Source of the DNA: Vermamoeba vermiformis
Lineage: Eukaryota
Reading direction: 5' to 3'
NCBI GenBank assembly: GCA_045837725.1
Contig: JBEWZL010000061.1
Location: forward strand, 62,001-126,000
Length of the DNA: 64,000 bases
The notes below the pieces were generated by a model. That model ran no database searches. It was not told where the DNA came from and worked only from the letters and a program-made list of their open reading frames with translations. The translations under genes were made by a program, and so were the position numbers. Below, in pieces: positions 14,621 through 57,500 of the stretch. Each line of letters starts with the position of its first letter. Positions within the stretch are counted from its first letter, which is position 1.

Positions 14621-15131
14621 TTAATTACAGCAGCGGGTATATTTGCGCATATTTTCCCACCAAGAGCGATGCAACAAAGACGTACAAACCGTACAAGATC
14701 AAAGCAACACTCGGGATCTAAAAATCTGCTCGAAACGTTTAATTATTAATACGAAGAGTATGTTAAAAAATTGCAAGTGATAAATATTTGCACCAAAATC
14801 AATATTGTAATAATAGGCGAAATCTGATCGAAACACTTTTCATTTACAAGCTAGCAGATACTAACGTGATAAAGATAAAATATTACATGCAAAATACAAT
14901 GTTGTAAATGAGATTAAAATATCATTAAATGATTTTTACCTGATCCGATCCAAAGGGAAGAAACTGAAATTGCTCAAACAGCTCGTTTATTTGCGAGCAG
15001 ATGATATCCAATTCAACAGTTTCTCGAATTGCTTGAATCATTTAGTTACAATTCAATTGCAAGGCATTAATAAAATCGCTTGGTGTTGCACATTATTGCA
15101 AAGTAATTTTTACTCGATTTCGATCGGGTTT

Positions 15132-16786
15132 TTACAACAGCATCGCAACGCACAACAGAGAAGCAAGACCAAATTGAAGAGCACCAGCGCTGCTGACCTT
15201 CGGGGGTGTTTGAGTGACAACAACTGGAGGAGCAGGGCACGTCACTGTGGCATTGCACGAGGCTGGGGCACCGAAGGCCCGAGTGAACGAGAGTTGAGCT
15301 TGAATGGCTTTGTTGGCCACAAGTCCGATGCCAGTGAGAGTTGTATCCATAGCACCGCATTGAGGATTGTTGATGGTGTACAGCGCTGAGATGTCGACTT
15401 GAGAACAGTCGCTGACTTGTTCATCGTTGCAAGTCACGTTGATTGGTTGAGTGAAGCAGCGAGGTATGGTGTAGAATGTCAAACCAACAGCACCAGGACC
15501 ATTAGCAATCATGAAATTGGGAACAATAATGTCGAAGTCGTTAACTCCAACTCCCAAGCCCCAGAGTCCAAAGCCCACAGTTGGGTTGGGCAAGTCGGCA
15601 GCTGGTTCCCATGCGCCATTGGCGTTGCGAGTCATCAAAAGGACTTTACCAACACCATTGGGCATATTGTTACCAGAGTAGCCTTCAAGGCCAGCAGTCA
15701 CCAAGAGGTTGTTGGCATCGAGGAAAACAGTCGCGTAACCCAGGAATCCTTGAGGATTGAAGCCAACACTGGTTGTTGTGAATGTTTGTTCGTTCCACAT
15801 GCCATTCGACTTGGTGTACACAAACACAATTCCGGACTCGTTAACTGTAGGTTGCGCGGTGAAACTCGAGCAGACAAGAGTATCAACACCATTGTAGTTG
15901 ACACTAACAGGACCAAATGTGCTGTTGACTGGCAGTGACTCGATGAACTTCCATGATTTGTCTGCTTGTCGTTCAAAGAACTTGACTGAGATGTCGCTGC
16001 CGTTTGTGAAGTCAGCGAAGACCAAGTGAGTGTCTGTCACACGATAAGTGGAGTATTCGCCTTCATAACTGACAGGAGTAGTGACGACCACTTCAGTGCC
16101 AGGAATGTTGAGCCAAGTGTTGTTCGATGCATTGTATTCGAATGTTCTGATCGTGAAGTTGCCATCGTTCAACGGAGAGAACGGATCGTAGCCAACAAAT
16201 GTGTCATCGGAGAGCAAGAAGCCACCATTGGCATTAACATAGCTGACATTGGAGATGTGATTGTTGTTATCGATGCTGAACAGAGCCATGCCTTCGCCAG
16301 ACAGTGAGACCCACTTGCCGTTGGTGCTCGCAAAAGGAGAAGTAACGTCGGTGAAGTTACCAACAGGCACGTAGATACCATCAGCATTGCGACGTCGAAT
16401 GGCCATTACTGGAGTACTAGAGGGAGCGATAACTAATCCTCTTTTGGCAGCAGGGCTTGCGCCGGTGTTGCTTGCGTCAAAGTAAACGAGCAGATCTTTC
16501 TTGGTTGCGACTTGAAAGACAGGTCCGGGTAATTGAGTCAGCGTAGACCAGTTCATCGGTTCTAGCGTAGCGCTCTAGATCAATAGAGTTAGATCTACCC
16601 GGTTGCGAAATAGTTTTGGAAACCAAGAACACAAAATTAAAGAGTGCTAACCAACCGCAGCTAACAGAAAGAAAAAAATGCTGCGGTTGGATGAAGAAAA
16701 ATAATATAATCAATCAAACTTACGGGACGTTGAGAGAATGCAACGGCAGCCAAAATAGCAATAACCAAACCGAGCAGTAACTTCAT
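15132..16786 (-). CDS. Surface beta-propeller-like family, copy 8 (intact)
   Basis: Exon 1 16724-16786 MKLLLGLVIAILAAVAFSQRP; intron 16575-16723; exon 2 15132-16574 contains the 474-aa ORF. Confidence 0.88.
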
Positions 16787-29312: not shown

Positions 29313-30028
29313 GTTGTTGTCTTAGTAATAATAATTGATATAAACATTCGTCGTTGATATTTTTAGTTTTATTGCTTTAGTTCGTTCGTTGAATTTCTGC
29401 TAATTAATCGCATCTGTTTTAACATCCACAATAGAGGAATTCTATGACTAAGCACAATGCAATACATTACATCGATCCGACAGCTCGCGAAGAGGAGCCA
29501 AAATCGGCAGCACGGGTTAAGATCGAAGATTTACTGGGTGAACAGTAACGGGAGCTGTAACTGGTATTAATAGGATATCCACCAAAAATATTTTTAGAAA
29601 ATGTGGCAAATTTTGAGGCCATTTTAAGCAAGACGTTTAGCTGCTCTCCTGTCCATTAATTAATTTTGTAAATCTGCTGCTAATTATTGTCCTGAACACA
29701 AACAACCCTAGAAAATAATGTCTAATAAGCAGACTCCACATGCACGAATAAAGTGAAGCAAAGAAGAACAAAGAAGAAGAGCAAATCCGTTTCGCAAGTC
29801 GAGAGGCCAACAATTCCGAACACATTGCCAAATAAGCACAAATCGTCAATGGTGGATTACATCGGTGGAATACTATTCCAATCTCCAAGACGCAGAAACA
29901 CGGGTGTTACATAATCCACATTAATCCGTGCGTGTCGATTGCCTTTTATGGTCATCGGAAAAATTAAGAAATGCAACTTTTGCCTATGCTTGGCAACTGC
30001 ATTATCCCACCAAAATCTCGTCAAAAAA

Positions 30029-30036
30029 TATAAATA
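30029..30036 (+). promoter_or_regulatory. Candidate TATA box of the ZP-like gene
   Basis: TATAAATA lies ~25-30 nt before the start of a long A/C-rich leader preceding the ATG at 30357. Confidence 0.5.
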
Positions 30037-30356
30037 GGGGTGCGGCAACGCTCAATTATTCAACCAAAACAATAGAGAGAACAACAACTCTCGAACCAAA
30101 AACACAGCGCAGGAATAAAATATCAAACAAGCTCTCAACGACAACTCGATCCGAAGAGTCTAACAGCTCATCATAAGAACAAGTAACAACGAAAGAACAA
30201 AAGAACTCACGAAGAACAAGAAGTAACGAAACCAGATTCGAACAACAACAGCGAAAGAAAGAACAAAAAAGTAACTCAGATCAAAACGAACACTCGAACA
30301 ACAACTCACAACAACAACAACTCGCAACACTCAACACTCGCTTAAATTAGCCTTTC

Positions 30357-32092
30357 ATGAACAAAGCCTGGATCCGTTTTCTTCTCGCCGCTCTTTGCGT
30401 GAGCGCAGTCTTCGCACAAACTTGTCTCTACAGTGACGGCACAACAGTCGCTGGCAAGAGCATCAATGGCCTGTGCAGCTGCTACTCGGGCTACTGGGGT
30501 GCTAATGGCTACGCTGACTGCACTCTCAAGGACGACCAATGCGCCTTCAACCCTGCTCCTCAAAACCTCCAAACCGGCTACATTCCCATCCTCGACGAAC
30601 AAGCCTCTGGTGCTAACAACGGTGAAATCACTCTCGTGATCCGCTCGCCTCTCGTCACCAACAGAATGGACGCCGCCATCGCCTTCCAAAACGGTGATGC
30701 CAGCTGCTCGTACCCTGGCAACTTGTGGGTGAAGAGCGTCACTCAGTGCAATGACACCTTCACTGTCGTCATGCCCATGTCTTCTGCCTCCCTGTGCGGC
30801 TGGACTCGTGACGAAGATGCCACTTACAGCTACATGCGCAGCATTTTGATCGTCTCTCAATACGACAACCTCGCTCTCCGTGGTGACCCCATCCTCCGTA
30901 CCACTCAATCCATCATTCGTGTTGAAGTCAGATTCCCCAAGAGAATTACTGTAAGTAGCTACGCGCTCGACGGAATAATTTCGATCGGAACATTTCTAAC
31001 GCACGTGCTTCTAAATATAGGTTACCTCTGAAATCAATGTGTTCAGCAGTGTCAACCTCTTGGCTGCGATCACGTTCCAAGCCTACGATCCCGTCTCTGG
31101 AACTGGTGCCCTCGAATACACTACCTCGTTGCAATATCCCTTCAAGATCTCCGACGTTATTGGCCTCATTGTAAGTGCATTCGATAACAAGTACTCGACG
31201 ACTAGTGCTCACCATATTGATACCATAGGTCCCCGCTCCCTTGGTCTCCAACTACTCTTTGACCGACATTAACTGCCCCGATACTCAAGGCGCTCCTTGC
31301 ACTCAACAGATCCGTCTTGTTTTGATCCCCAACGCCGCTTGCAAGTTGAACGGTGACTACAACATCACGACCTCGCTCATCTGCCGTGGTGACCAAGCCG
31401 CTTGTCCTTTGGATGCCAACACCAACACTGCCTTGATTGCCTCCAAGGTCGTCTCTGAAGACTTCTGCCAGATCGTTCGCTTCGACATTGACCTCAACGG
31501 TGCTTTGGAAGTCTACCAAGACGCTCAACACACCACCCCCAAGACTGCTTTCTTGCCCTCTCAAACCGCCTTCTTCTTGGCCACCGTCTGGTCCACCAAG
31601 GCTACCATCGTCTCCTCTGCCATCACTGATGTTGCCTACGCTCTTCCCGATGGTACTTCTCGCTCTCTCCTCGCCGCTGGTGACAACACTGCTCTCGGCA
31701 ATGCCAACCAATTCGCCTTGACTCCCAACAACGCCACCTCTGAGGGCTTCCAATTCGTCGTCTCTGTCGGTCAAACCACCAACGACATGTTCCCCGTCAA
31801 CATTGACGCCAACGCTCAATTCCAATTCAGCGCCACCGTTGAAGTCGAATGGCAAGGACTCAACACCCTCAGCACTGGCAAGCGTTTCGCTTTCAACTTT
31901 GCTCAAGCCAACGGTTTGCCTTCTGGCACTCAAGACAAGAAGTTCGACACCACCGTCGGCATTACTCCTTTGAACAACGTTGGTCAAACTCCTTCTGCCT
32001 CTGAGCCCTTGTCCAACCCTGCCTTCAGCAGTGCCTCAACTGTTGTTGCTTCTGTGGCCTCTGCCGCCGTTGCCTTGTTGGCTCTCTTCTAA
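30357..32092 (+). CDS. Secreted, probably GPI-anchored Cys-containing surface/coat protein (EGF-like N-terminus, ZP-like domains), 3 exons
   Basis: Signal peptide MNKAWIRFLLAALCVSAVFA; introns 30951-31020 and 31171-31228 restore the frame; CSCYSGYWG EGF-like motif; C-terminal SSAS + hydrophobic tail; strong bias to C/T-ending codons. Confidence 0.8.
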
Positions 32093-32194
32093 GCCAATTT
32101 TTGATTGTGAATACCTTGAATTGCGAATAAAACTCTATCTTAAAATTACATCTTGTAGTTAACTAAAAAATTTAGTATTTTACATTCGACACTA

Positions 32195-33355
32195 TCAAAA
32201 ACACTTTCTATGCACGACCTTAGCGCCACACTCTTCGTACTCTCTCTTGGTTATCCACTTATCTTGCATACTCGGCATCACTGCCAAACAAGATCCACCG
32301 ATCCACACGTTGTTCCTGCGTTCAGGAGTTCCAAGTACTTTGACAATTTTATCCGCCGGTGCCAGCACTAGCAATTCTTTGCGCAATCGTTCAGTCATGC
32401 CAGGGAACATCGTGTTGCCGCCAGCAAGGACAATGCTGCCGTAGAGATCTCTTCGCAACTGCAAATCATTCTCGCACTTTAAGATGGCGTTGTTAATGTG
32501 TTCGTGAATGCCAGCGGTCTCTAGCCCTATTAATGATGGCTGGAACAGAGCTTCAGGACAACGGAACCGCTCGCTGTTGACTTCGATTGGAACACCCATC
32601 TCGTCATGGTGTCGTACTAAAGTGTTGGTATTCGTGGCTGTAACTAACTCCTGTTCGTAGTCCAAGGCAACATAGCATAACTTCTCTTTAATGTCTCGGA
32701 CTATGCCTCGTTCAGCATCAGTTGAGCTTGTGATGCCACCGTCATTCAACATCTGCACCCAGTTGCCACGGTCATTCATTAGCTTCATCAGGTAATCTGT
32801 CAAATCACGGCCAGCGAGATCCAGACGCGTGATTGCGTGTTGGATGGCGTGGCCTTCGTACACGGGCACAATAGTTGTGACGCCATCGCCGGAGTCCAAT
32901 ACAACACCAGTGTGCCTATTGATCGCCAGGAGTGCCAAGACTGCTGGATTTGCCACGTACATTGCAGGCACTTCAAACTTCTCGAACATGATCTGCGTCA
33001 TTTTTTCTCTGTTCGGCTTGGGGTTCAACTGAGGTTCAGTGAGCAAGACCGCGTGTTCGTTAACAGATACGCGCAGCTCTCTATTGAAAGCATAGTCCCA
33101 CAGCTCTTCCATTACGTCCCAATCGTTGACGATCCCGCGCTCGACAGGGAAGAATAAGTCCAATACGTTGCGCATGGACAGGGCCTGATCGGCTACAAGT
33201 GGTACGCAATCACCCATGCCGAGTGTGGTACTGGTACGGCGGCGACCAACTACTGAAGGAAACACTCCACGAGGAAAATCGTCGCCAGCAAATCCAACCT
33301 TCATCTTGATCGATCCGTTGTCGATGACCAAGGGCTGAGATTCAGCGATTTCCAT
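32195..33355 (-). CDS. Divergent actin-like protein A1 (intronless, intact)
   Basis: 386-aa ORF with [50 protein letters not shown]. Confidence 0.92.
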   Translation of the reverse strand: MEIAESQPLVIDNGSIKMKVGFAGDDFPRGVFPSVVGRRRTSTTLGMGDCVPLVADQALSMRNVLDLFFPVERGIVNDWDVMEELWDYAFNRELRVSVNEHAVLLTEPQLNPKPNREKMTQIMFEKFEVPAMYVANPAVLALLAINRHTGVVLDSGDGVTTIVPVYEGHAIQHAITRLDLAGRDLTDYLMKLMNDRGNWVQMLNDGGITSSTDAERGIVRDIKEKLCYVALDYEQELVTATNTNTLVRHHDEMGVPIEVNSERFRCPEALFQPSLIGLETAGIHEHINNAILKCENDLQLRRDLYGSIVLAGGNTMFPGMTERLRKELLVLAPADKIVKVLGTPERRNNVWIGGSCLAVMPSMQDKWITKREYEECGAKVVHRKCF

Positions 33356-34609
33356 TTTAAAATATTCTTATAATTCCTAAATAGATAAATTAATCACTAT
33401 AACCGCGCTATCAAAGCATATTACTAAACTTAATTGAAAAAATTGTCTGACGATTTTAAGCATTATTAAAATTTCCTCTATTTACCAATAAATAAATTCT
33501 TTGTTTTTCTGATGGAATTTGTTGGGGGTTCGGCTATTTAATATCGGTGGTTCCTGTTTATAAAATAGTTTGAAACGTTTCTAAAATTAATTTACCAAAT
33601 ATAATTTTACCTAACCACGGGTTGCACGGTATGGTCGGGATGGGGTCTTGGTGCTATTGCAAAATACCAACTTCTCTCGCGTGCACGCAAAGACAAAACG
33701 GATTGTTGAAATTAAATCCCTGTTTTGTTGTTCTTTCCACGTTACAAATTAATCAATCAACTGAAATCATCGGTATTATTGTCCAGGACCGACGAGGCCA
33801 AGATTGACTGGTAATTTTTTGGTTAACGGCAACGCCCGAACTGAAACCAAATTTTTGGGTGTAATGTCTTTATCATTTGCCTTAAAATCAATACAACAAC
33901 CAAGCAATGAGCTATCCCCCATCTACCGTACAATACAACGGTATGACTATAAATACTGACATTAGAAATTTTGTCGCCACCTTCCCCTGGCTGGCTCCCT
34001 GGCTCACTAACCCCGCTACCCCCACTCTCCCCACCACTACCACCACTCCCACCACTCCCACGGAGCCACCTACCGCTCCCTCTGACCCCACCTTCGAGCT
34101 ATACAACATTTCCATGTAGTTCACGACCGGATGGCTTATTAAATGGAACAAGATAAGTTCCGACGGTTCCGAACCCAAAATGATATTATCATTGTAATTT
34201 ATATGTTGCAGAGGATAGAAATAAATTTTAAGGACTACTAATACAAACGCTGTAGTGTAGCCACGAAGATGGGCAACAAAAGAATGAGCCCTAAAACAAG
34301 GGCTTTGTGACCCATTTAACCCAGGTATGTTCTCGCTATTGTTCCGTACTTTAGGCGTTACAGGACCGAAAATAATATAAAATGGGGGTGAGAAAGCGTA
34401 ACAGCGGAGATTCGGTTAAAGATTTATTAACTTACGCAACCTAGAATCCGCTTCTTTAAAACAAAAGGAATGTCGGCCACTTGTAATTATTTGCACAACA
34501 ATAGTACTTCAAACGCTAAGCATTCTTAAACCAAAACCGAAAATGAATCTTTATTCTTCAAAACCAATTAACACATTAATGCAGGAGTTCTTGTTTTAAC
34601 CAGATGATT

Positions 34610-35736
34610 CTATATACATTTTCTATTTACAATCGTTGGGCCGCATTCGTCAAACTCGGCTTTGGTGATCCACATCCGCTCCATCGTTGACAAAGAAGCC
34701 AAAATTGAGCCACCGACCCACGCATTTAAATTGCGGTCAGGAGTGGCGCGAACATATGGTATCATATTATTATTATCAGTAACAAGAGCCCTCAATTCCT
34801 TTTGCAATCGCTCCTTCATACCAGGAAAGAACGCGTTCTTCTTGCCACCGGACAAAATGACGTTGCGGTAGAGGTACTGCTGCAGATCTTTGTCGCACTT
34901 CATGACGGCACTGTGAACGAGCTCGTGAATGCCTGCTGATTCTAAGCCCAACAGTGACGGCTGAAACATTGCTTCAGGACACCGGATGCCAGCATCGCCA
35001 ATGTTAATTCGATTGCCGTCAGGCATTTCATAAGCATTTTCAAAGTGAGGAGTCGCTGCTATAGATTGTAGCCTTGCTTCGAAGTCGTCGGCGACTGAGC
35101 AACACTTCTCTTTGATGTCATTGACGACGGTACGTGCCGTGGGTGCGGTGTCAAGTGTGTGCCCACGCTCGCTTAACAGTCTCGTCAAATACTCTGTCAA
35201 ATCTGCGCCTCCAATATCTAACCGCATGACGGCGTGCGTGATTGCGTGGCCGTCAACGATTGGAACGACGTAAGTTACACCAGCACCTGATTCGACTACC
35301 ACTCCAGTGATTGGACCAGTGGAGTACAGTGATAACACGGCCTGATTTGCCACGTACATTGCAGGCACTTCAAACTTCTCGAACATATCTGAGTCATCTT
35401 TTCTCTGTTAGGCTTGGGGTTCAACGGAGATTCGGTGAGCAGCACTGGATGCTCTGACGGGTTAACGCCAAGTGCAGTGTTGAAGGTATGTCGCCAAATC
35501 ATCTCCATATCGTCCCAGTTGTTGACAATGCCGCGCTCGATCGGATAGCTCAGATGCACTCTTCCGGAGTTGGCTAGTGCATCATTGCCGAAATAACAAG
35601 GATCGTTTGTTGACATCGGCGTTTGAGTACGTCCAATAATGGAAGGGAACTGTGAGAGAGGAGCATCGTCACCAGCAAATCCGGCTTTTATCGCGCTGGA
35701 TCCATTGTCGACTACCAAAGCTGGTATTTCTTCCAT
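34610..35736 (-). CDS. Divergent actin-like protein A2 (-1 frameshift at 35386/35387; pseudogene or sequence error)
   Basis: ORFs 35296-35742 and 34610-35386 join as MTQI|MFE; lacks one g relative to A4 (gaacatgatctgag). Confidence 0.85.
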
Positions 35737-36172
35737 AAGCACTAAATATTGAATTATTTAAATAAGTCAATAATATTTAAATGTTTTAATATCATAGAAA
35801 TTACAGTCTTTTCAACGAAAAAGCCTTGAACCCACTAAAGTTATTGGAATTGCATAAAAATCGAGGATTCTTGTGATCGATTAATTACTTGCACATTGAG
35901 ATGTAATAAATCATTAATTTAAAAACAGAAATCGAAGGCGGATGTGAGCTTGGCTTACCAGATAAAGACCCACAGCTACTCTGCAAACAGCAACCAACCA
36001 CTTAATTATACGAACAACCGCTGTTGTATACAATATTGAATTGCAAGCTGAAATGTGCTTGGTGCACGGAGACGAATTGGCAAGTCGCCGGATTTGAGTT
36101 TTCTGGACAATTGTTAGCGGTTTGATGGCGTTCAATGAACCGTTTGTATTGCATCTTCACCATGGATTGTAA

Positions 36173-37291
36173 TTACATTATCGCTTTCTGCTTACGGACC
36201 ACGGAAGGTCCACACTCGTCGTACTCTGCTTTGGTGATCCAAATCTGCTCCATAGACAACGAGCCCAAGATAGAACCACCGATCCAAACCGAACATTTGC
36301 GCTCAGGAGGTGCTACAATGCAGACCCTAGTATGTGCAGGAGCAAGAGCGGTCACCTCTTTTTGCAATCGTTCTGTCAGACCTTCGAACATGGCGTTACC
36401 ACCCGACAAAATAATATTGCCGTACAAGTCCTTATGACTACTGACATCGCACTTTGTGATTGATTTGTGAACGAGTTCGTGAATACCAGCTGTTTCTAGG
36501 CCTAGTAACGAAGGCTGAAACATTGCTTCCGTACATTTCACTCGTCCAGTGCCAATAAAGATCATATCGCCATCAGGTAGCTCATAGCCATTCGTTAAAC
36601 GAGTGTCATTCGCAATCGCTTGCATGTCGCGTTCAAAATCGTTGGCAACAACGCACTTCTTCTCTTTGATGTCTCGAACAATCTCGCGATCGGTCAACGT
36701 GTAGGGCTCGGATAATAGCTTAATCAAGTAGTCCGTAAGATCGCTGCCGCCAATATCTAGGCGCATGGTGGCGTGGTCTATAGCCTTGCCTTGAATGACA
36801 GGCACAACATTCGTCATTCCATCGCCCGACTCCAATATGAGGCCCGTTGTATGACCAGAAGCGCACATCGATAGCAGAGCCTGATTCGCTGCATACATTG
36901 CGGGCACATTGAATTTTTCGAACATGATCTGCGTCATCTTTTCTCTATTGGCTGCGGGGTTCAATGGAGGTTCGGTGAGCAGCACTGGTTGTGCCGCTGG
37001 ATCCACTTTGAGTTCTGTATGGTACATGAAATGCCAAATACTTTCCATATCATCCCAATTACTCACAATGCCGCGTTCAATTGGATGCGAAAAATTAACA
37101 TCTAACTTCCTCCGCTTGGCCATTGCGTAATCTCCGATATAAATTGTGCTCTGTTGTGCCGATGATGATAATCCCTTCGTGTCACGTGCAATAACAGTCG
37201 GGAAAATAGAACGAGGAACATCGTCGCCAGCAAATCCAGCTTTTATAACGCCAGATCCATTATCGACAACTATAGCAGATAAGTCTTCCAT
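36173..37291 (-). CDS. Divergent actin-like protein A3 (intact)
   Basis: Starts MEDLSAIVVDNGSG at 37291; full actin-fold motifs; altered C-terminus VVRKQKAIM. Confidence 0.9.
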   Translation of the reverse strand: MEDLSAIVVDNGSGVIKAGFAGDDVPRSIFPTVIARDTKGLSSSAQQSTIYIGDYAMAKRRKLDVNFSHPIERGIVSNWDDMESIWHFMYHTELKVDPAAQPVLLTEPPLNPAANREKMTQIMFEKFNVPAMYAANQALLSMCASGHTTGLILESGDGMTNVVPVIQGKAIDHATMRLDIGGSDLTDYLIKLLSEPYTLTDREIVRDIKEKKCVVANDFERDMQAIANDTRLTNGYELPDGDMIFIGTGRVKCTEAMFQPSLLGLETAGIHELVHKSITKCDVSSHKDLYGNIILSGGNAMFEGLTERLQKEVTALAPAHTRVCIVAPPERKCSVWIGGSILGSLSMEQIWITKAEYDECGPSVVRKQKAIM

Positions 37292-37787
37292 ATTATTTCT
37301 AAAAATTATTCTGGTTAAAGCTAGGAACGAGGGATTGACAATAAGTGATAGCGAAAAGATGCTTAATGAAAATAAATTTACTGTCAATTTATTTTTAATT
37401 AGTTTGTAATTCTGAATTTTTGCAAACCTTCAAGCTAAAATTACGAAAAATTGCCAACTTTACTATGTAATATAGCAAATAAATATCACTTCGTAATAAA
37501 TTATCACTTACAGTTTCGCGTGGATCAGTGCCACTTATTATGATTGTGCTAAGCTTTACCGTTTATCGCTCGTCAGACCATAATTTATTCACGCGCCGTT
37601 GTGGTGATATTATCCAAAAATTTTAATTTTACTCCAGCTGGTTTTTCTTTTCACCAAACACCGTTGTTAGTCGCGTATGCCTTGCCACTGACTCTACTTA
37701 TCATTACTAGCTGGGCAAATCTTGACTTCGTGTGCGTGAAGTATTTTGCTGTCCCATCCCACTTTCGAAATCTAATTTTGTATCCCC

Positions 37788-38910
37788 TCAGCACTTTCTA
37801 TTAACAATACTAGGGCCATATTCGTTGTATTCTTCTTTCGAGATGCACATAGGCAGGAATGTAGACAACGAGCCCAAAATTGAACCGCCAGTCCAAGATG
37901 AGAACTGTCGGTAAGGCGGATCTATCACTTTGATCTTCATATTTGGAGGCGCAAGAGCCGTCAACTCCTTGAGTAACCGCTCTGCCATGCCAGGGAACGA
38001 TGTATTGCCTCCAGATAGAACAACATTGCCATACATAATGCGTCTGAATATCTTTGTCGCACTTCACGATAGAACTGTGCACGAGTTCATTAATGCCAGC
38101 GGTCTCCAACCCTAACAGCGATGGCTGAAACATCACTTCAGGGCATCGAATGCGCGCGTTGCCACATATGATCGGAGGCCCATCAGGCAGCTCGTAGATC
38201 AGTTCCGCATGTGCTGCAGCGGCAATAGCTTGCATCTCTTGATCCAAATCTTTTGCAACATAGCAGCACTTCTCCTTGATGTCACGAACTATCTCTCGGC
38301 CGGCCGTGGAAGTGAGCGAGTATCCACGCTCAGCCAATAACTTTGTCAAGTAGTCGGTCAGATCGCGACCTCCAATGTCCATGCGCATGATAGCGGAACG
38401 AACAGCGTGACCTTCAAAGACAGGCACGACCTCTGTCGTTCCGTCACCCGACTGCAGCACAACACCAGTGCCACGACCAGAAGCATACATTGATAACACG
38501 GACTGATTTGCCACGTACATTGCAGGCACTTCAAACTTCTCGAACATGATCTGAGTCATTTTTTCTCTGTTAGGCTTCGGGTTCAATGCAGGCTCGGTGA
38601 GCAGTACTGGATGTTCTGACGGGTTAACACCAAGTGCAGTGTTGAAGGTATGTCGCCAAATCATCTCCATATCGTCCCAGTTGTTGACGATTCCTCGCTC
38701 GATCGGATAGCTCATTAATCCTTTCTTATTTGTCGCATGATCACCAACGTAAGTGTGAGTAGAAGCGTCTGATCCGTTCGCATTATCCAGCGTTCCATTC
38801 ATATGACAGACAACACCAGGAAATGTTACTCGAGGAGCATCGTCTCCAGCAAATCCTGCTTTGATTAAATCGGATCCATTGTCGATAACCAACGTCGTGA
38901 AGTCTTCCAT
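37788..38910 (-). CDS. Divergent actin-like protein A4 (+1 frameshift at ~38037)
   Basis: ORFs 37810-38910 and 37788-38036 join as [15 protein letters not shown]. Confidence 0.85.
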
Positions 38911-39232
38911 TGTTAATTTAATTAAAGCTGAAAATTAGAAAATTAAAATAATTATGATACTAAGGCAAATAATACGTTCTTTATTTAGGTGGTTATTCAA
39001 AAATTCAACTGATTAAAAATAAACATTAACGGTTAAAATTAGATTTTAATTTGTTAAACTTACTGGTCAGGCAGATGGCGGACGGAAATTAGCGAGCAGA
39101 CTTAAGTCTATTGCTGTACCACGACGAAGGTAGTTTTATTTGTTTTTGGTTGATTGTTGGTGCACGTTAAACGATTAAACAAAGAGGACTAAAAATACAA
39201 GGCGCCGAAGATTTCTGGTGGACCTGTTTCTT

Positions 39233-40350
39233 TCAAAAGCACTTTCTATTAACAGTAATTGGTCCGCATTCGTTGTACTCTTCCTTTTTTATCCAACAGT
39301 CTTGAAAGGTTGACAGCGAAGTCAAAATAGAACCACCGATCCAAGTTGAATACTTTCGTTCAGGAGGCGCGATGACCTTGGCCCTCATGTCAGGAGGAGT
39401 CCTAGGAGCCAACTCTTTTTGCAATCGATCGGCAAAACCTCGAAACATTGTGTTACCGCCAGTCAGTACAATATTGCCGTAGACAAACTTCTGTATGTCA
39501 GGATGAATCTTCATGATAGCGCCATGAACGAGCTCATGCACACCAGTCTTTTCCAATCCCAATAGTGTTGGTTGGAACATTACTTCGGGACATCTTATGC
39601 GTGCGTTACCAGGGTTAATTGCAACATCACTATGGACCGTGTCTGTTTGAAGACCGAAGTTTGCATCCGCAGCGTAATTTTGCATCTCCTGTTCGAAGTC
39701 CAACGCTACGTAGCAAAGGGTCTCTTTGATATGAGCGACTATTGCTCGATCTGAACTATTGTATTGATGACCCTTCTCTTCCAACAGTTTTAACATGTAG
39801 TCTGTCAAATCTTGACCGCCAATATCCAAGCGCATGATCGCGTGACGCAGTGCGTGTCCCATGGTAGATAGGAACAACGTGTGTGATCCCATCACCGGAC
39901 TCTACTATAACACCAGTCGTAGGTCCACTTGCGCAGAGTGCCAACGCGGCTTGATCCGCGAGATAGAACCGCTGGAACTTTAAATGTTTCGAACATTATT
40001 TCAGTGGTCTTCTCTCTGTTGGCTTTAGGGTTCATTGAAGGCTCGGTTAGTAACACGGGACGTTCCTCGGCGTTGACTTTAAGTTCCTTATCGAAAGTGT
40101 GACGCCAAAGTATCTCCATATTATCCCAGTTATTAACGACCCCGCGCTCTATGGGATAATTTAGCCTTAATGTTCCTCGGTTTGCTAATACCTCGTCTCC
40201 AGCATAATGACTCGGTTGACCCGTTACCGTCGTATCTTTAGGTCTGCCAACAACAGAAGGAAATATTGCGCGCGGGGCATCATCTCCCGCAAATCCTGCT
40301 TTTATACGACTGGATCCGTTGTCGATAACTACGGCCATAACTTCTTCCAT
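39233..40350 (-). CDS. Divergent actin-like protein A5 (+1 frameshifts at ~39969 and ~39859)
   Basis: Three ORF pieces (39892-40368, 39756-39944, 39233-39895) join as [12 protein letters not shown]...IYHG|HALRHA; the extra bases fall in cc and ccc runs. Confidence 0.82.
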
Positions 40351-40780
40351 GATGCACCTTTTAAACAAATTAATGTTATCACTTTACGGTCAATTTAAAA
40401 TAAGAATATAATATCATTACAATAATTATTACAATTATTGAGAACAAGCGCTCGTAATAATTAATAAATTACCAGATTTGAATTTTTAAATTTGGACCAA
40501 AGAAAGAAAATGGTAATATATGGTCCATAATTCATTATCGAGTTTAATAATTAGACTAGTTATTTAATATCGAACTAAAATTTAGATAATGAAAGTAGCA
40601 CGGACTTACGCAAGTCTTAACAATCAAAGTTTTATTAAATACTCGTGTATTATTATATAGACCTAAGGCCGTAGTCACAATTTAGACCTGTTGTGCTATT
40701 TAGTTTTCAAGCGGAATATATTTTACAATTTATTTCTTCACCGAGTTTAGTTTAGTTTTCTCTCGTTCTTAGAGATCTTC

Positions 40781-41875
40781 TTAGAAGCACCTCCTGTGCA
40801 CAACAACAGGCCCACACTCTTCGTACTCCTCCTCGGAGATCCAGATTTGTCGAAATATGGACAACGAACCCAAGATAGAAGCACCGATCCAAACCGAGAT
40901 TTTGCGCTCAGGAGGGGCAATAATTTTGATCCTGTGCCCTGGATCGGCCAAAATAGACAGTTCTTTGCTCAAACGTTCGGCAATTCCTGGAAACATTGTA
41001 TTACCGCCAGCCAAAACGATGTTACTGAACAGCTCTTTACGGATGTCAGCGTCACACTTCATGACCGAGTTGTAAATAGCCTCGTGAATACCGCAAGACT
41101 CCATTCCTAATAGCTGTGGTTGAAATAGAGCTTCAGGACAGCGAAAGCGTTCATTGCCGATCGCGAAGGCACGGATGGAGTCTGGGTATTGCGGGTGAAT
41201 ATCAGCGGCTGTTTGAATTTCTTGTTCGTAGTCCAAAGCCACGGCACAGACGTTTTCCTTGACTTGAATCACATTTTCGCTGTCGATAGAAGCGTAGCCG
41301 CGCTCATTCAACATCTTTGTTAAGTAGCCAGTCAAATCACAGCCAGCCAAGTCAAGACGAATCGTAGCGTGAGGAAGAGCGTGCCCTTCATATATAGGCA
41401 CAACGTGCGTGGCACCATCGCCAGAGTCCAACACCACGCCAGTCGTTCGACCAGCGGCATAGAGTGCAAAGACAGATGGATTGCCAATGTACAAAGCAGG
41501 CACGTCGAAAGTCTCGAACATAATTTGAGCCGCCTTCTCTCTATTAGGCTTGGGGTTCAAGGGAGGCTCGGTAATCAACACAGGAGCCACTGTTGGATCG
41601 CACACTTCCTTTAATTCCTCGTGGAAGACGTAGTCCCAAATTTTCTCCATATCATCCCAGTTGTTGACAATTCCACGCTCAATAGGATAGCTGAGGTCCA
41701 ATACATCACGCTTAGCTCGTGCGTGATAGCCAACGTAATAGGGCTTGAGACCAGGATCAAGACTGTCTGTACGGAGTCGCCCAACGACTGTAGAGAAATC
41801 TCTTGGATACTCATCGCCAGCTAATCCGGCTCTAATTAAACTGGACCCATTGTCAATAACTATGGAAGCAGCCAT
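40781..41875 (-). CDS. Divergent actin-like protein A6 (intact)
   Basis: 364-aa ORF with actin motifs, ending VVHRRCF. Confidence 0.92.
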
Positions 41876-42241
41876 CGCGACTTAATAGATCTTTCAGTAT
41901 CAAATCTTAAAGACTTAACTCCTGCAAAAAAACTCGCATAAATATTGCCGAGTTATATTTGATTAATTATGGCGTTGAATAACTAAAACAAAAAAATTAA
42001 TTAATTTTTTAATTAAATCCGTTGCTAGTCTTGCTCTTACCTAATTCTGGCGCTTAGAACAGATACTACGAATAACTAATCACGTTAAACCACCATTTAA
42101 GTTTTGCAAAACGCAATGACGGTGGTCGTGCAGGCCATAAAACAAACGTTAATGCCTGAAAAACTGCAGTTTTTTTGTAGCCCCGATTTTTAAGCGCAAA
42201 TTTATTTACAACAATATGACTATATATATTATAACTATGTA

Positions 42242-43614
42242 CTAATTTTGATTGCTCAAGTATGGGCTCACGGATCGCAGAATTTCAAACATCAAGTCTG
42301 GATGCCCCTGCGAAAGAAATGGTAAGTGTGCGTTCGAACATCATTAATATCTGTTTCATTTACTACTTTGACGCTCTCTTGGAAGTCTGAGCAGTTAAGA
42401 ACGGCGTTGAAGTTGCTCAGAATGAAGTCCATACAAAACTTCTTCAGCGTAGCAGCGTGGAACCGATCTGCCGTGGATAATACCGAACCAACATTTTCGA
42501 CTTCAACGTACAATGTTAGTTATTATAATGAAGGCATATAGTGTTTTAGAGACAATTAATTTTTTTGATGTTTTGGATGCAGCACTTACTCGTGACTTGC
42601 TCGGCAATGGTCTTCTCGCAAATGGTCGTCAAACTTGACAATAAGTACTCGTCGGAGAGACTTAGCAATCCTAGTGCAGTCTGCGCGTTCAACTATATTC
42701 ACATAGTTAATAAATGAAGTGAAAGAGCACGTGTCACATCAGATGTTTCCTTATATGGAATTCAGGCTCTTACGTTTTCTACGCGGTCGGTATAGATATA
42801 TTCCAGTAGGGCCTTGAAGGCAAGTGCGGTGTGACCTTCAATTTTAATCTCTGCAGCGGTGGCCTCACGCATATTACCCAAAAACATGGCCCTTGACGCG
42901 AGTCAATTAATACAGCTTCAAATATTGTAATCCTTTCGTACCTAAACTTCTCGCATCTGGCAGCTAAAATAGCACGATGAGCACGAATAGACTCGTCTTC
43001 AACCTTGAAAGTAACGTCGGATAAGATAGGATTCGCCAACAGTTCTTTGAGGTGCACGTTGAGCTCAGCTTGCGGAGTTTCAGTTGGTACTTTTGGTGGT
43101 CGAATGCAATTGCGAATGTGAATATAATCGCCGTTTGTCATGCACACCTGTTGCAACAAAGTTTCAATTATTGAAATTTAAATAAAAAGACTAACGGCCA
43201 CCAATGATTTAAAGATTGATATTTGCAAAGAATAATTGGTACTTACATCAGCTGGGCACTGATCTTGGCGCAATTTTTCAGTGAAGAAGAAAGCCATGCT
43301 GCCTGGAGCCAGATAATGACGCAAATAATATTGCTCGAACATTTTACTGAACGGAGTTGTGTATTTCATTTTGAATTCAGTAATTTCGGATTTATGGACG
43401 CGAACAATTCGGTCGTATTCGCCTTCCAAGTACAGATCCTCATCCGCGATCGCAGTAACCTTGATAATACGTTATTAAATTGCCAAAACGTAAAAAATGC
43501 ATCATTTAATATTTTTTATAATTATTGGCCTTCTGTACGACTAAATTCAAGCTTCCGCTGATTACTGGTTCAATCTCGCATGAAACTTACCATTATCTGC
43601 TCAGGCCCGTCCAT
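42242..43614 (-). CDS. SUMO-like domain + BTB/POZ(-BACK-like) protein, multi-exon
   Basis: FKMKYTTPFSKMFEQY..MAFFF..DQCPAD..MTNGDYI (SUMO-like); LSDVTFKVEDESIRAHRAILAARCEKF..MF.GNMRE..LEYIYT (BTB); LKKFCMDFI..HPDLMFEIL. Confidence 0.8.
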
Positions 43615-51598: not shown

Positions 51599-54500
51599 TT
51601 AGTTCATCGTTCCTCGACATGAAGCGGCACCACATCTGCACGGTACTTTCTCATCTTCGATAGGGAACATGTAATCGTAGGCTATCTCCTCACCAGGCTT
51701 GATATCCTTCTTAGCGAAAATGATGATTTTCTTGCGTCCTTCGACGGACACAATGCGTGTGACGGCATTGGGCTAAACAAGAACGGATCAGCAACTCGAA
51801 CTCGATCTGCACCACAACCTCCTACTTACATCACAACAATGGTTGATAAATCTCGCAATGTTGCCCTTCTCGGTTGCGTCGACGATAATATCTTCGTCAA
51901 TCTTGAACATGTAGCAGCCAATGCCCTTCGAGTTATAACGGATCTCGCGCAGATCGGCAATCTTTTGACGAATTTCTTCGCCAACGTACTCGATAATCAT
52001 GTCGTTCTCCCTATTGAGTTTTTAGTTAGTATGTGATACATCAATAAACTAGCCATATTAGCGCGTACTTAATCTCTTGCTTGGCGAAAACACCCCACTC
52101 GTGGATCGGTGAGCGCATGACTTGAATTGTCTTGCTCAACTTCTGGCGCATTTGCCTTTAAGAATATTAGTATACAGTGATGTTACCATAGCGCAAGATA
52201 GTCACATACCTATACAACACACCGACAGGCAACTCTTTGATTGTGTCAGCGTTTTTGTGATCCTCACGGCTGTTGTTAATTTTACGACCAGCAAGACTAG
52301 GAACGAGTTTGTTATGAAGTGCTTGGAAGCCATAAGCACCCATGTACTCCATCTTCTCGTCGTTGTTCTTTTTGGAGTATGGCTCCGTGCGTGCACATCC
52401 AGAAGGATTAACCGGCAATTCCGTCTTGATTTCACGATTATCTATATGAAATAGTTAATAAAGCTGCCAAAGCCATGCGTAAACTAATGAGGTGAAGTTG
52501 ACTTACATAATACAGAGTGCAAAATCGTCCTTGGAATGCGAATGATCATATCATACTGGAAGTTGTAAGCACGACAGAGACGAGCATTAGGCAGCTTCTC
52601 AATCATCTTGGTGACCGTGGGGCTGCCCAAGCCGAAGAAGTATTCAGATCGCAGGTTGTTACGGATGAGCAACAAACGGCTGAGTGGCTCGACGTCCATC
52701 TTCTTGTACAGCTCAATATTCGAAAGCAATTCTTTGTACAGGTTGAATATTGCGCTATTGATCTTTTCGATAACTTGACGCCAAGCATCTAGCACAAAAA
52801 ATGTCAGATTCGATCCAGGATCAGCCCCACACAAAAAAAAAGGATGATGCATTTGTGTTCAGACCCTTAGATGTTATTTGACCACTCATAGATATCGTGG
52901 GTCGAAAGGTTTCATCATATAAATGCCTTTAAACAGAACCAAGCGTGAACTTCGTCACCGAAATCCTCGCATCTGGTTGCCGCAGAAAACTATTGTGGTA
53001 CTAGTCATGCACTTACCAGCCGCAGTCTTGCCAACAATCAGAACATCAGGGTCATCTTCGCAGGTAATCTTGAAACAGGGTTCACCATCAATCTCGAAGA
53101 TCTGCATTCGGTAAAGACAGCGGGGCAAAAACAGCTTCGGCAAGCGGATCATGTCGCGGTGCGCTGGTTTCTTGCGCAACTTTCGACCGACACGAATATT
53201 GCGTCGTCTTATGACATCGTCGTCACGTTCAATCTTCCAACTCCAATAGATACGTGAGCTTGTATAATGAAGAGGGAAAATGTAATCCGCAGTGCTGAAA
53301 GCCTTTTTGTCGTGCACAATTTGGCCTAGATTTCGCACGGAAAGAGCTCCGACACGCGCCTAAATCTTGGTTAGAGCCCTACCTAATACGAAACGCTAAT
53401 GATAAGAACTTACCAGGAGGTCTTGCGGAGGTATTTGAGGTGTCAACTTTGACTTCTTGCCGGCGAGATTGATTTTCTGTGGCACGAGCTTCTTGTTCTG
53501 GGTGAAAGACGACTTCATCACACTGTGAATAACGCGGTTTGGATTGGCAGGATCTTTGGCCTCAGACTTGATAATCGAGGTAGGTGCGTGTGCTTCGCAG
53601 TTGACAAACTTATCTTCGGGACTAATCGAGAATCTGCAATTAGCCTTGATAGCGCAGTTGAAGTGGTAGTTCTTGGAACAGCGCACTGAGTTGCAGCTAA
53701 CGGTGGCACCAACTCCTCGGCACAAATCGCAAACTGTAGTTTTGGCACGATGAAGCGCCTTCCAAATGTTAATCAAGTCGCCTTCCTCGCTCTCGAAGAC
53801 TTCAGAGGACCACGAGGCACAGTTGCTGTGCACCCACGTGTACATTGTCAAGAAGAGAAGACGACCGCGCACTGCCAAATCGCCTTCCTCCCTGCACAAA
53901 GCACACTTTCTCGTGTCTTTTGTGTGAGGATGAACACGTTTGTCAAGCGATGTAATAGTAAGGCAGTTCACCTCTACATCGTCCTTTTGAGCTTTTGGTT
54001 CAGCAACAGCCGTAGGTTCTGCTGACAAGTCCAAAGTCTTCTTGTAGTTCCACACTTTGTTCAAGGCAGGACCGTTTTCCAAACGAGAGATGGTGTTCAA
54101 TGTAAGCGGGGTGTTCTCGTTGATTTCAGCCGAGTTGAAGTAGTCCGCAGTTCCTCTTATCAACTTGTTTGAACCAAAATAGTGCAAAGATTTCTTAGGA
54201 CGACCAACAGGACGCTTGGTGCTACCATCAGCAAAGCCTGACGCAGAGCGAGAAAGGATCGGAGTGCCGAACGAATCGCGCAACTTGGGTGGACGTCCTC
54301 GGCCTCTCTTCAGTAGAGAGCCCTCTGAAGCAGCTGAGTTCGATGATACAGCAAGCGGGCGAGGTCCTTTGAACTCTGGATCTTCATCAACCGAGCTAGC
54401 TGTCATCTTGTCGTCATCGTGAACTGCATGCTCAGTAGCTTGATATTCGAAAATGAAATCCTCTGACTTCGGGATTTTTCTTGGGCGTGTAACGATTCGC

Positions 54501-57500
54501 CGAGGCTCTGTTGGCTCTGCCTTGGGATTTCGTTCGGATGCAGGTCTAGGAGGGCGAGGCTCGCCAATGGGATACTTTCGGGGTCTGCCTCTGCCACGCT
54601 TCGCTTGTAAAGTCTCCAATGTTGCGTTGGACATCATTTCAGGAGGTCCGAGGCTGGTTACATCAACCAAAGTGGTCGGCGTTGTCAAAGATAGTAAGAG
54701 ATCATTCGTGGAATTCGAAATCTCATCCTGAATAAGAGGCACGGGAGACGGATCACTCTCTAATAGCGGCGAAGGGCTTGCAGACGGAATGCTTTGCGGA
54801 GGAATAGGAGTTCCAGACTGAGGTGGCGGGCTCTGTGAGGTACCAGGCTGAGGTGTGCCAGATCTGTTCTTCGGGGGACGGCCACGACCTCTCTTTGGAG
54901 TATCGCCTTCAGGTGGTGGCGGTGTTGGTGTTTCAGAGGGCGGGTATTTGCGTGGGCGACCTCGTCCTCGCTTGGTCGGCGTTGGGCTCAAAATCTGGGT
55001 TTGTCCATTCTGGTACGAGTTGAGCATTGGTAATTGGGAAGGAGGGGACTGGTGCATTGGAGAGATTACTCCAGGAGTGCTTTCGGGAGAGTGGAAAGGG
55101 CTCTTTTGGTTGAACGGGTCGATTGGGTTAAGTGAAGGGGAATTGGCGTTTTTGTAGAATCCTGGGTCGCTGAATCCCGTCGGCTTGAGGATACTGTCGG
55201 GAGGGCTCGAGTGGTGCGGTGAGTTTGGTATGTGCTCGAAGCCAATGTGAGATGGACCAAGTTTGGGAGAGTTTGAGAAGGTGGTTTGTCGTGCGACCTG
55301 CTGGATAATCGGTCTTGAAGCATACGCGGATCCACTATCGAAGAAATCCATATGCGTCAGATCCGATGTCCTGTTCATACCAAAATTGGACATCATATCT
55401 CCTTTGTGGTTATAGACCGATGTTGATGGAACATTCGTAACATGGCTCTCATAAGGCATGGAATATTTTTGCGAATACGCTTCAGGAGCTTGGTTGTGGA
55501 ACCCCGTGTTGTATCCGGAAGTGGGGTACATAGACAACAACGAAGTGTCGGGATCAGTTGGGCGATGGCTCAAATAGTCGTGCATGTCTGGTGCTCCACT
55601 ATACATATCATGCTATTCAAAAGAGTTAATCGTTGTCACTTTGAGAGGCTAAGTTTTAACTCGAACTTACCATTTCAAAAGCGGGGAACGTGTCCATTGT
55701 ACGCATTGGCATAGCCTGTTTATGACCAAATAAATCATCTTCATCGTGATGCATGGACTGTCTATGGGCGTGATAAGACGGAACTTGATTATGATTAGCT
55801 TCGTCATCAAATAAGCGCACCGAGCTGCTGGTCGGGTACTCGGCTGTAGAGTGGCCATTATACATTGTCGCGTTCGAAAAGCCGTTGGGAATATTGATGG
55901 GCATGCTACGGTCGCTACTCTCTTCGCTGATATCTACAAAGTCGTCTTCCATAGCATGCTTTTCTCGTTCATAGTACTCATTCGGCTCAGTGTTTCGGGT
56001 CGCTTGCGGCTGAGCTTCAGCTTGGGCAGCCACCGGTGCTGCCGTTGATACCTCCTTAGCTGCAGAGACAGTTGAAGCTGCTTCGCGAGCAGTCTCTTGT
56101 ATGGCAACAGGCTTTTTCTCCACGGCAGGCGGTGCAGCAGCAGTAGGAGCTGGAGAGACAGGTCTCTCTGGTTTCTCTCCGTTGGTTGATGATGTTAATT
56201 GCCTGCGTGAACTACGAGTAGCAGGATGAACGTTGGATGGAGGTGGCTGAGGTTTCATCGGCGAAGCTTCTTTCTTCTTCTTTACTGATCGTCTGTTTAA
56301 TAAGTGCTTCTCGGCGTAAGGGCTAACGGTGAAAATTCCCTTTCCGAGTTTCTTGAAGCGAGCCTTATCGCCATACTTGTTGATCTCGCAATACAAATTG
56401 CTACCCATGGTCCGCTCGGGAGTTTTGCCCTCAGTTGTAATGTAACCTTCTTTAATACATATCTCCGTTATCTTGTTTACGCTGAGCGGCTTGCCGGCTT
56501 TTTTGAGAACCATGAAAGCGGCGTCTTTGAAACTATATTCACTCAATCGTTAGTGCACTGCTAAAAAAACCTTCGGGGGTTCATACCTATAAGCTCCGTT
56601 TGACCGCTTAGTCTTATCATCTTCACTCATGTCGTAATCTTCAATTCCAGAAAGGCTAGTCTCCTCGATGTCCATCTTATCGTCGGACATGATTTCAAAG
56701 TCTTCTTTCATCTCCTCTTCGTCCTCGGGCAAGAGGTTGTTATCTCCATCACTATTGTAGCTTGGTGGAGGGTCGGAATCCAAATCTATATCGTGCTCAT
56801 CATCGTCCTCTGGTGAAGCATCACTTTGCTTTTCGTATTGCGGCTCTTCTTTAATAGAGCTCGCAATCACAGTCGTAGATGGTGTGACAACGTCAACCAT
56901 TTCTGTCTTCTCCTCGGTCTTCGATATAGGCGCCTGTTTAGCAGGCTCTTGGACTGGTGCAGGGTCCGTCTCTTGCTTGTTGATCTTCAAAATTGTAGTG
57001 ATTGGAGGAGGGACAGGAGGCTTGTTTTTGCTTTGCTCGACTAAGTCCTGCTTAATTTCAGCAAGCTTTTTGTCATATTCTTGGCCGCAGGTCCAACACA
57101 ATGTGTACGAGTGAGTCCATCTAATTATAAGTTAGACATGTAATCTCCACGTCATCAAAAACCGCGGCACTTACTTTGCCCCAGGAGCATCTCCTGGTGT
57201 TCGTGTACCACATCGATCGCATTTTATACAGTGAGAGCAACGCCAGCTTTCGTTAGGTACTTGTTGCAAGGGCGGATCCAAACAGAATATATGAAAACAT
57301 CGATCACACTTTGACAGATTGTCAGTCATACGCGCCAATAAATTTTAACGGGAATTTCACTTACCTTATCGCACATAATTAATTTGTCCTCTTCGCTCAT
57401 TTCTAAGCATTGTTCGCAAAATTTACAGTGAGGGCAGCGCCATTCCGCCAGCGAGCTGAGATTTTCCACCACAACTTTGGGCGTCAAACAGAACGTGTGG

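Follow-up and report, generated by a model that had tools for sequence, protein, structure and literature searches.

Six tandem actin-like genes in Vermamoeba vermiformis, probably an old lineage-specific family evolving by birth and death

The actinome of Dictyostelium discoideum is reported to comprise 16 non-identical isoforms, many clustered genes and seven potential pseudogenes, and in act30_ps a frameshift is described as splitting the gene into open reading frames (ORFs) of 106 and 258 amino acids (PMC2441452). For Paramecium, at least 30 family members are reported, grouped into subfamilies that are very distinct and share 30-80% identity with other actins; several of these subfamilies are described as lacking residues for the inter-monomer interface or for ATP, drug or myosin binding, from which the authors infer specialisation (PMC1852557). 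Here we describe six actin-family genes, A1 to A6 (named by rising coordinate), which lie head-to-tail and co-oriented on the minus strand between positions 32195 and 41875 of a 64,000-nucleotide stretch of Vermamoeba vermiformis DNA (assembly GCA_045837725.1, contig JBEWZL010000061.1, positions 62,001 to 126,000 of the forward strand), hereafter called the window.

The locus resembles Dictyostelium in having many actin genes beside the conventional one, and the split reported for act30_ps is similar to that seen in A2. It differs in that clustering in Dictyostelium is reported for the identical genes of the Act8 group, and the other isoforms are described there as highly homologous to conventional actin (PMC2441452), whereas the copies of the array considered here are 55-63% identical to it. 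Like Paramecium, this unicellular eukaryote has a distinct actin subfamily that has lost interface and ATP-site residues. The Paramecium genes are reported to be dispersed, to form whole-genome-duplication pairs and in many cases to carry introns, whereas here a single clade forms a compact tandem array with intron-free coding regions.

Two further sets of divergent actins invite comparison. NAP1 of Chlamydomonas is described as a second actin of about 65% identity that is silent normally, and it indicates that low expression and divergence of this order are compatible with function (PMC6789165, PMC12050087, PMC6541019). It differs in being a single gene whose product is reported to be latrunculin-resistant and filament-forming, and the array copies are altered more radically, both in the D-loop and at catalytic positions. 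The mammalian and reptilian testis-type actin-like proteins ACTL7A/ACTL7B and ACTRT1/2 share with the array an intronless coding region, a retained actin core and, as reported, tissue-restricted expression (PMC6642428). Their genes are described as dispersed or paired, with no six-gene array, and the testis-type sequence in our comparison (P0235) is 41-46% identical to the six copies and lies elsewhere in the tree; the two groups are not related by descent.

Closer parallels in gene arrangement came from metagenomes. One 16.8-kb contig (L015/L016) carries three diverged actins and one more conventional actin, head-to-tail, with matched pieces that are 46-63% and 53-79% identical to actin, and a contig from another eukaryote (L018) carries two to three tandem diverged copies. 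All of these copies have the motif E-R-G-[IV]-V-x-N-W-D, with Arg at the position of His73. They differ from the array in having introns and in being at most about 54% identical to any of the six, and are independent cases rather than orthologues. Because divergent actin families are known from Dictyostelium and Paramecium, and tandem arrays occur in these metagenome contigs, the Vermamoeba array is a further lineage-specific divergent actin family and no new kind of system.

The reading that we prefer, with a probability of roughly 0.75, is that the six divergent actins form an old tandem family, specific to this lineage and undergoing birth-and-death evolution, in which the protein core is conserved and converted, the contact loops have been rewritten copy by copy, and null and intact alleles occur together.

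All eight submitted ORFs and ORF pieces matched the Pfam Actin profile PF00022 (E 5e-33 to 2e-117), including all five pieces of A2, A4 and A5. The complete ORFs of A1, A3 and A6, which are the only uninterrupted ones in the window, cover the whole profile (E 8e-110 to 2e-117) with bit scores of 367.6, 392.5 and 382.1, respectively, for a cut-off of 27. With copy lengths of 364-386 residues there is no space for large insertions. The original prediction had placed six co-oriented actin genes in this interval, and the ORFs and profile matches bear this out for family membership in all six cases; only three of the six are continuous ORFs, the frame breaks in the others having been read through without mention. 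Its description of the genes as intronless likewise stands for the coding regions, all of which can be read without any intron, and fails for A1, whose 5' leader contains two spliced-out stretches. The plus-strand neighbour at 30351-32092 has two GT..AG introns, as confirmed by a spliced contig. Acceptor-like Y-rich...AG sites lie just upstream of each ATG, with RNA support for A1 only; such sites are frequent in AT-rich DNA. No similarity was found between the spacers of the array, and a sensitive tblastn search with the six copies and conventional actin revealed no seventh copy or relic in the window (best outside match E 0.79).

Pairwise identity among the six copies is 50-64%, and their identity to four conventional actins is 55-63%; the four actins share 87-93% with each other. 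These four are invariant at 306 positions; the six copies all keep the actin residue at 87 of them, and at least one copy has lost it at the other 219, among them 27 where none retains it. Counted copy by copy, the departures number 101-123. With identity only at this level, and with the D-loop, His73, Tyr169 and the Gln137/His161 pair altered, the copies do not qualify as conventional actins. One copy, A3, was modelled with AlphaFold from a 58-sequence alignment, giving a predicted local distance difference test (pLDDT) score of 92.2 and a predicted template modelling (pTM) score of 0.90, and the model has the four-subdomain actin fold. In a structure search against about 48,000 solved chains, its best match was the actin chain 4pl7_A (Z 48.9; root-mean-square deviation 1.3 Å over 343 residues; 57% identity).

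Identity of the A3 model to solved actin-related proteins (Arps) was lower: 34% to chain 1k8k_A, which we take from its entry to be Arp3, 25-27% to Arp4, 23-27% to INO80/SWR-type Arps and Arp8, 19-23% to Arp7/9, and 26% to the dynactin chain 5adx_J. Arp2 had no row among the matches listed, 1k8k being represented by its Arp3 chain only. Among sequence matches in the PDB, the best 60 of 169 were all actins. Arp1, or centractin, is the Arp closest to actin, with a similar length and without large insertions; the one named Arp1 available (P0225) is 42-45% identical to the six, versus 55-62% for actin, and the pair of P0225 and P0261 lies outside the six in both of the trees described below. The six therefore do not appear to belong to any of the Arp subfamilies compared, an outcome for which the original prediction had allowed, being nearer to actin than to these Arps. 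Taken together, they appear to be actin-like proteins that are neither conventional actins nor Arps.

Database searches turned up no closer relatives and no orthologues. For A3, the 120 matches listed from 5.8 billion protein clusters were actins only, at 43-61% identity. A family profile run against 1.84 billion representatives gave 37826 matches, and of the best 150 none was more than 58-67% identical over more than 250 residues. The motif E-R-G-[IV]-V-x-N-W-D-x-M-E, searched at the DNA level, matched five of the six window copies with 0 matches expected, and none of 31 metagenome loci carrying it was more than 61% identical to any copy. No relative was found in viral contigs scanned with A3, for which A3-specific peptides were used, so that distant viral actins would be missed. 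A search for sequencing runs listed small shares (0.05-0.18) in metagenomes from water, aquifers and soil, and no RNA data set. Within the data searched, the family appears to be restricted to this organism.

A careful 53-row tree places the six in one clade (ultrafast bootstrap 87; Shimodaira-Hasegawa-like approximate likelihood ratio test, SH-aLRT, 94), with the subclades (A1,A6) and (A2,A3,A4,A5) supported at 99/84 and 99/96. Sixteen derived residues are common to at least five of the six copies. They include His73 to Arg (all six), Tyr169 to His (five of six, with Lys in A3), Ile136 to Asn, Phe266 to Leu and Thr303 to Asn.

Between copies, the proportion of synonymous differences (pS) is 0.65-0.77, which is saturated, versus 0.22-0.34 for non-synonymous differences (pN). 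The ratio of the corresponding substitution rates (dN/dS) is 0.08-0.24 in 11 of 15 pairs, those with dS defined, although these values are rough because dS is saturated. Since synonymous sites are saturated and the spacers lack similarity, the duplications are old, and the copies have been under purifying selection for most of the time since. Duplicates that are old and long constrained speak against decaying pseudogenes with dN/dS near 1, the other outcome that the original prediction had entertained, and none of the six read-through sequences contains an in-frame stop. By the same reasoning there is no support for its description of the family as rapidly diversifying.

Short stretches depart from this picture of uniform divergence. 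The tract of A2 listed in Table 1 matches its counterpart in A4 at 93.4% over 229 nucleotides, and the inner 82-99 nucleotides of it also match A1 32947-33045 at 93-96%, against a background nucleotide identity between copies of 58-68% with saturated synonymous sites. These high-identity tracts are best read as gene conversion in the conserved core. A retro-origin had also been raised for the array, and as an account of each copy it is unlikely because A1 has introns in its 5' untranslated region (UTR). Processed retrogenes were rejected on the grounds that the A1 5'UTR introns are spliced, that no poly(A) remnant is seen (no A-run of eight or more in the 150 nucleotides after any of the six stop codons) and that the copies are tandem, not dispersed.

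To place these changes on the protein, alpha-actin numbering was used; 26 landmark residues served as a check, and each had its expected identity in the four conventional actins. The surfaces used for longitudinal contacts are the least conserved (Table 1). The D-loops cannot be aligned between paralogues. The six strings quoted in the original prediction are present letter for letter, and its statement that the loop differs in every copy is confirmed by the 8% pairwise identity. The EKSYELPDG region of subdomain 4 is, as it had claimed, unrecognisable in A1, A5 and A6, and is kept in A2, A3 and A4; A1 also has a 10-residue insertion in this subdomain. The core is indeed kept: the hydrophobic plug averages 77% pairwise identity, and the loops that bind nucleotide average 63-81%.

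At single positions, Asp11, Ser14, Lys213, Glu214, Gly302, Arg177 and Glu270 are kept in all six copies, and Gly15 is retained in A3 only (it is Ile in A1). His73 is Arg and Tyr169 is His or Lys in all six, while Tyr143 is replaced in three; the C-terminus of A3 is changed to ...RKQKAIM. Gln137 and His161 are central to ATP hydrolysis. The former is Pro in A1 and A6, and the latter is Thr in A1, Tyr in A2, Asn in A3 and Glu in A4, being retained in A5 and A6, so that both residues are found together in A5 alone. Given that the D-loop is lost, that Tyr169 is replaced in all six and that Gln137 and His161 are both kept in one of the six, it is reasonable to suppose that the copies are unlikely to polymerise normally. 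A conserved barbed-end face with only the pointed-end face rewritten, as would suit pointed-end capping, was also considered and was rejected, as residues 283-294, 322-327 and the W-loop are changed as well.

Four single-base frame breaks are present in the window, one each in A2 and A4 and two in A5. The A2 break is a missing base near 35386-35392, between ...MTQ(I) and MFEKF. Four public runs were aligned to 30000-43000; X1 consists of short-read contigs under the same species label with Illumina adapter tails visible. The A4 base 38044 is left out in X1 contigs with 417 of 703 depth, the A5 base 39863 at 409 of 706 depth in X1 and 3.05 of 3.05 in a second run, X5, and the A5 base 39969 at 619 of 619 depth in X1. 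An unbroken version was thus found for three of the four breaks, which means that A4 and A5 also exist intact; without these extra bases, their proteins are uninterrupted. The A2 break is absent from the indel rows listed for the aligned runs.

These breaks are unlikely to be all of one kind. The frameshifts at 38044 and 39863 look like real alleles beside intact ones, because both versions co-occur in X1, whereas X1 gives no support to the window's extra base at 39969, which may be a private variant or an error of assembly. As the only gap in the A2/A4 conversion tract, the A2 lesion would be young, or an error. Should the breaks be real, the window carries null alleles of A2, A4 and A5. It is the co-occurrence of null alleles with intact ones, for at least two copies, that leads us to birth and death. 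An unrelated tandem family upstream in the window has single frame breaks in three of its seven copies, the same rate as in the actin array. This common rate could stem from indels in the assembly or from a haplotype with many young null alleles; it indicates that the breaks are recent lesions, or assembly indels, rather than traces of old decay.

A1 has low-level transcripts that are spliced. Its depth in X5 is 6-11, that of the neighbouring gene being 100-260, and a 959-nucleotide X5 contig runs from the A1 coding region into the 5' leader, joining 33377 to 33487 and 33552 to 33610. The stretches skipped upstream of the start, about 33378-33486 and 33553-33609, have intron-like boundaries: the second has minus-strand GT..AG ends, and the first is flanked within 1-3 bases by GTAAAT and TTTAG. 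Under the same species label, the RNA-seq runs X18 and X20 (about 1.85 billion letters each) cover the neighbouring gene at a depth of up to 40. Their reads are mostly 95-99% alike, with fixed differences, and may come from another strain or from paralogues. Within the array they match 35658-35692 only (35 bases, the DNGS region of A2), with unrelated sequence on both sides, and these reads probably derive from another actin gene of the genome that is highly expressed.

Based on these results, we propose the following course of events. One ancestor, which would already have carried His73 to Arg, Tyr169 to His, Ile136 to Asn, Phe266 to Leu and Thr303 to Asn, was presumably multiplied by tandem duplication at the DNA level. 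Purifying selection has held the actin fold and most of the nucleotide pocket. The segments for longitudinal contacts in F-actin, namely the N-terminus, the D-loop, the tip of subdomain 4 and residues 228-250 and 322-327, have drifted or been remodelled copy by copy, and part of the core is still being homogenised by short gene-conversion tracts. The proteins would still bind nucleotide. Since A5 alone retains Gln137 together with His161, the normal coupling of ATP hydrolysis to polymerisation would be lost in most copies, and canonical homopolymers would not be built. The likeliest role for such proteins may be as low-abundance or condition-specific subunits that form non-canonical filaments, or that bind or modulate the ends or partners of conventional actin.

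Several observations weigh against this interpretation. Three of the six copies are frame-broken in the window, and the indel rows listed offer no second version of the A2 break. The bootstrap of the 53-row tree is not fully settled, and a quick 105-row tree leaves the two subclades unjoined in a large polytomy; for the same 105 rows, forcing the six into one clade improves the log-likelihood by 49 units over the free quick tree, and the constrained tree is not rejected (approximately unbiased test, p-AU 0.89). The roughness of the dN/dS values counts here too, and among 13 coding variants listed, 7 are non-synonymous versus 6 synonymous, a mild signal of constraint at most. Expression is sparse: in X5 the depth does not exceed about 3 on A5 or about 1 on A6 and A2, and is 0 on A3, A4 and most bins of the spacers, and that X5 is RNA at all is a guess backed by its spliced contigs only. 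X18 and X20 have essentially no reads on 32170-42585, a negative that is weak given the 95-99% similarity of their reads and their possible origin in another strain or in paralogues. Residue numbers, and the choice of contact and catalytic positions, follow what we take to apply in rabbit alpha-actin. Finally, actins of about 58-65% identity, namely NAP1 and LokiActin, are reported to polymerise (PMC6789165, PMC12050087).

This last point is the basis of an alternative that we consider unlikely, though deserving of attention, in which the copies are stage- or stress-specific, fully filament-competent isoforms with altered dynamics or drug sensitivity that are switched on conditionally, much as NAP1 is. 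NAP1, at about 65% identity to mammalian actin, is described as filament-forming, undetectable normally and strongly up-regulated by latrunculin B (PMC6789165, PMC12050087), and LokiActin, at 58%, is reported to form actin-like two-stranded filaments (PMC12050087). In the array, the hydrophobic plug is 62-77% identical to actin and Arg177, Glu270, Lys213, Glu214 and Gly302 are invariant, and low or absent expression in the available runs would fit conditional use. Filament competence is harder to reconcile with D-loops that are 0-27% identical to actin and 8% to one another, with the replacement of Tyr169 in six, Tyr143 in three and Gly15 in five of the six copies, with the survival of Gln137 and His161 together in A5 only, and with residues 322-327 and 228-250 that are largely rewritten. 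Nor would null alleles for at least two copies be expected of it.

If null alleles are given more weight, the array could instead be dying, with non-functional duplicates being lost and the intact ORFs merely not yet hit. The four frame breaks in three of the six window copies, the near-balance of broken and intact versions in X1 (about 40% versus 60% of depth at 38044 and 39863), the very low or undetected expression and the ratio of 7 non-synonymous to 6 synonymous listed variants are all in keeping with such decay. We nevertheless judge it improbable. Synonymous sites have reached saturation with pN still at 0.22-0.34, and neutral copies of that age would be rich in stops, whereas six 1.1-kb genes contain none; the 87 actin-invariant positions kept in every copy speak for the same constraint. 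Every break is a single base, other reads supply an intact version of three of the four, A1 has spliced transcripts, and the unrelated upstream family is broken at the same rate (three of seven copies).

Two related ideas invoke conflict with other organisms. In the first, which seems to us very improbable, selection in a birth-and-death cluster would keep the D-loops and pointed-end faces different, so that each protein serves as a decoy, guard or drug-insensitive spare for conventional actin, and the null alleles and core-only conversion would be footprints of an arms race. If true, the attackers would be natural products and effectors that hit actin. The second, to which we give hardly any credence, is that the copies act as decoys for, or sensors of, actin-targeting pathogen or toxin molecules, with surfaces diversified by an arms race. 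Circumstantially, the tandem arrangement, the birth-and-death features and the segregating null alleles would suit decoys, as would the location of the most variable parts on exposed surfaces. Two of the seven listed non-synonymous variants fall in the D-loop, about 4% of codons, a pattern that was noticed post hoc, and the toxin target residues Arg177 and Glu270 are kept in all six. The duplicates are nonetheless old, with saturated dS and no recent burst detectable, expression is very low, and surface loops are what would drift first once the filament constraint is lifted. No signalling or immune domain is fused to or adjoins any copy, and the role as decoys or sensors put forward in the original prediction is left unsupported.

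That the six are duplicated members of a known Arp subfamily (Arp1-Arp11) is close to refuted: beta-centractin and ACTRT2-like clusters are among the three nearest to A1 in a language-model atlas (all 0.98), and the A3 motif GSGVIKAGFAG may be reminiscent of Arp1, but the six are 42-45% identical to centractin against 55-62% to actin, the Arp1 pair lies outside the group that holds them, the A3 model is 57% identical to actin versus 19-34% to Arp3, Arp4, Arp5/6/8, Arp7/9 and chain 5adx_J, and the best 60 of 169 PDB sequence matches are all actins.

The coordinates of the array and the conservation of its protein regions are collected in Table 1.

Table 1. Genes and tracts of the actin array in the window, and conservation of protein regions among the six copies (residues in alpha-actin numbering)
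Feature	Position	Strand	Observation
A1	32195..33355	-	Intact, 386 amino acids; Pfam Actin E 8.4e-110
A1 5'UTR, two spliced-out stretches	33378..33609	-	Seen in X5 contig
A2	34610..35736	-	Split over two frames; otherwise without in-frame stop
Gene-conversion-like tract, A2	35325..35552	-	Matches A4 38486-38714
A3	36173..37291	-	Intact, 372 amino acids
A4	37788..38910	-	One extra base in window, at 38044
A5	39233..40350	-	Two extra bases in window, at 39969 and 39863
A6	40781..41875	-	Intact, 364 amino acids; Gln137 to Pro; sister to A1 in tree
D-loop	residues 38-52		Mean pairwise identity among six 8%; to actin 0-27%
N-terminus			Mean pairwise identity among six 21%
Residues 322-327	residues 322-327		Mean pairwise identity among six 23%
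Residues 228-250	residues 228-250		Mean pairwise identity among six 24%
Subdomain-4 tip	residues 195-205		Mean pairwise identity among six 28%
Phosphate loop 1			Mean pairwise identity among six 70%
Phosphate loop 2			Mean pairwise identity among six 63%
Adenine loop	residues 301-306		Mean pairwise identity among six 81%
Hydrophobic plug			Mean pairwise identity among six 77%; to actin 62-77%

The surroundings of the array contain further genes of interest. The upstream tandem family, on the minus strand at 1530-16574, comprises seven co-oriented genes, 44-84% identical in pairs, for a protein of about 480-510 amino acids. Its C-terminal tail is hydrophobic, and the copy at 6085-7611 has a signal-like N-terminus; in the window, two frames are needed to read three of the seven. 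No Pfam match was found in the seven pieces scanned, and no usable match in the protein atlas. The plus-strand gene at 30351-32092, with introns at 30951-31020 and 31171-31228, looks secreted and is the best expressed near the array. Its summed depth in X1 is 3000-4100 versus 440-890 over the actin array, with up to seven variant contigs, and it probably belongs to a multi-copy family with members elsewhere in the genome.

Within the array, the A1-A2 spacer (1.25 kb, the longest) contains a 167-amino acid minus-strand ORF at 33823-34415 with no Pfam match, which may be the remnant of another gene. The same spacer has a low-complexity stretch, Gly/Ser-rich on one strand and Pro/Thr-rich on the other, where X1 depth is slightly raised (885). 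Directly upstream of A6 lies a minus-strand BTB/POZ-domain gene (42498-43177) with an X5 depth of 3-17 and two skipped stretches, 42891-42940 with minus-strand GT..AG ends and 42499-42589 with non-canonical ends. Farther along, large minus-strand ORFs at 53396-57979 with PHD-like zinc-finger, HARE-HTH and PHD domains are probably exons of one chromatin-reader gene. Beyond them come an exon for diphthamide synthesis (59141-59677), which matched unnamed proteins at 76-99% identity, and a short-chain dehydrogenase (60975-61769). Among the neighbouring genes, Pfam gave no marker of taxonomy, and Rfam had 0 matches.

Few eukaryotic proteins are as constrained as actin, so that six clustered paralogues in which fold and nucleotide pocket persist beside unrelated D-loops amount to a ready-made natural mutagenesis series. 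Such a series could be used to probe the roles of the D-loop, Tyr169, His73 and Gln137/His161 in polymerisation, capping and partner binding. It also adds to the actin family a case of birth-and-death evolution, with gene conversion and with null and intact alleles occurring side by side.

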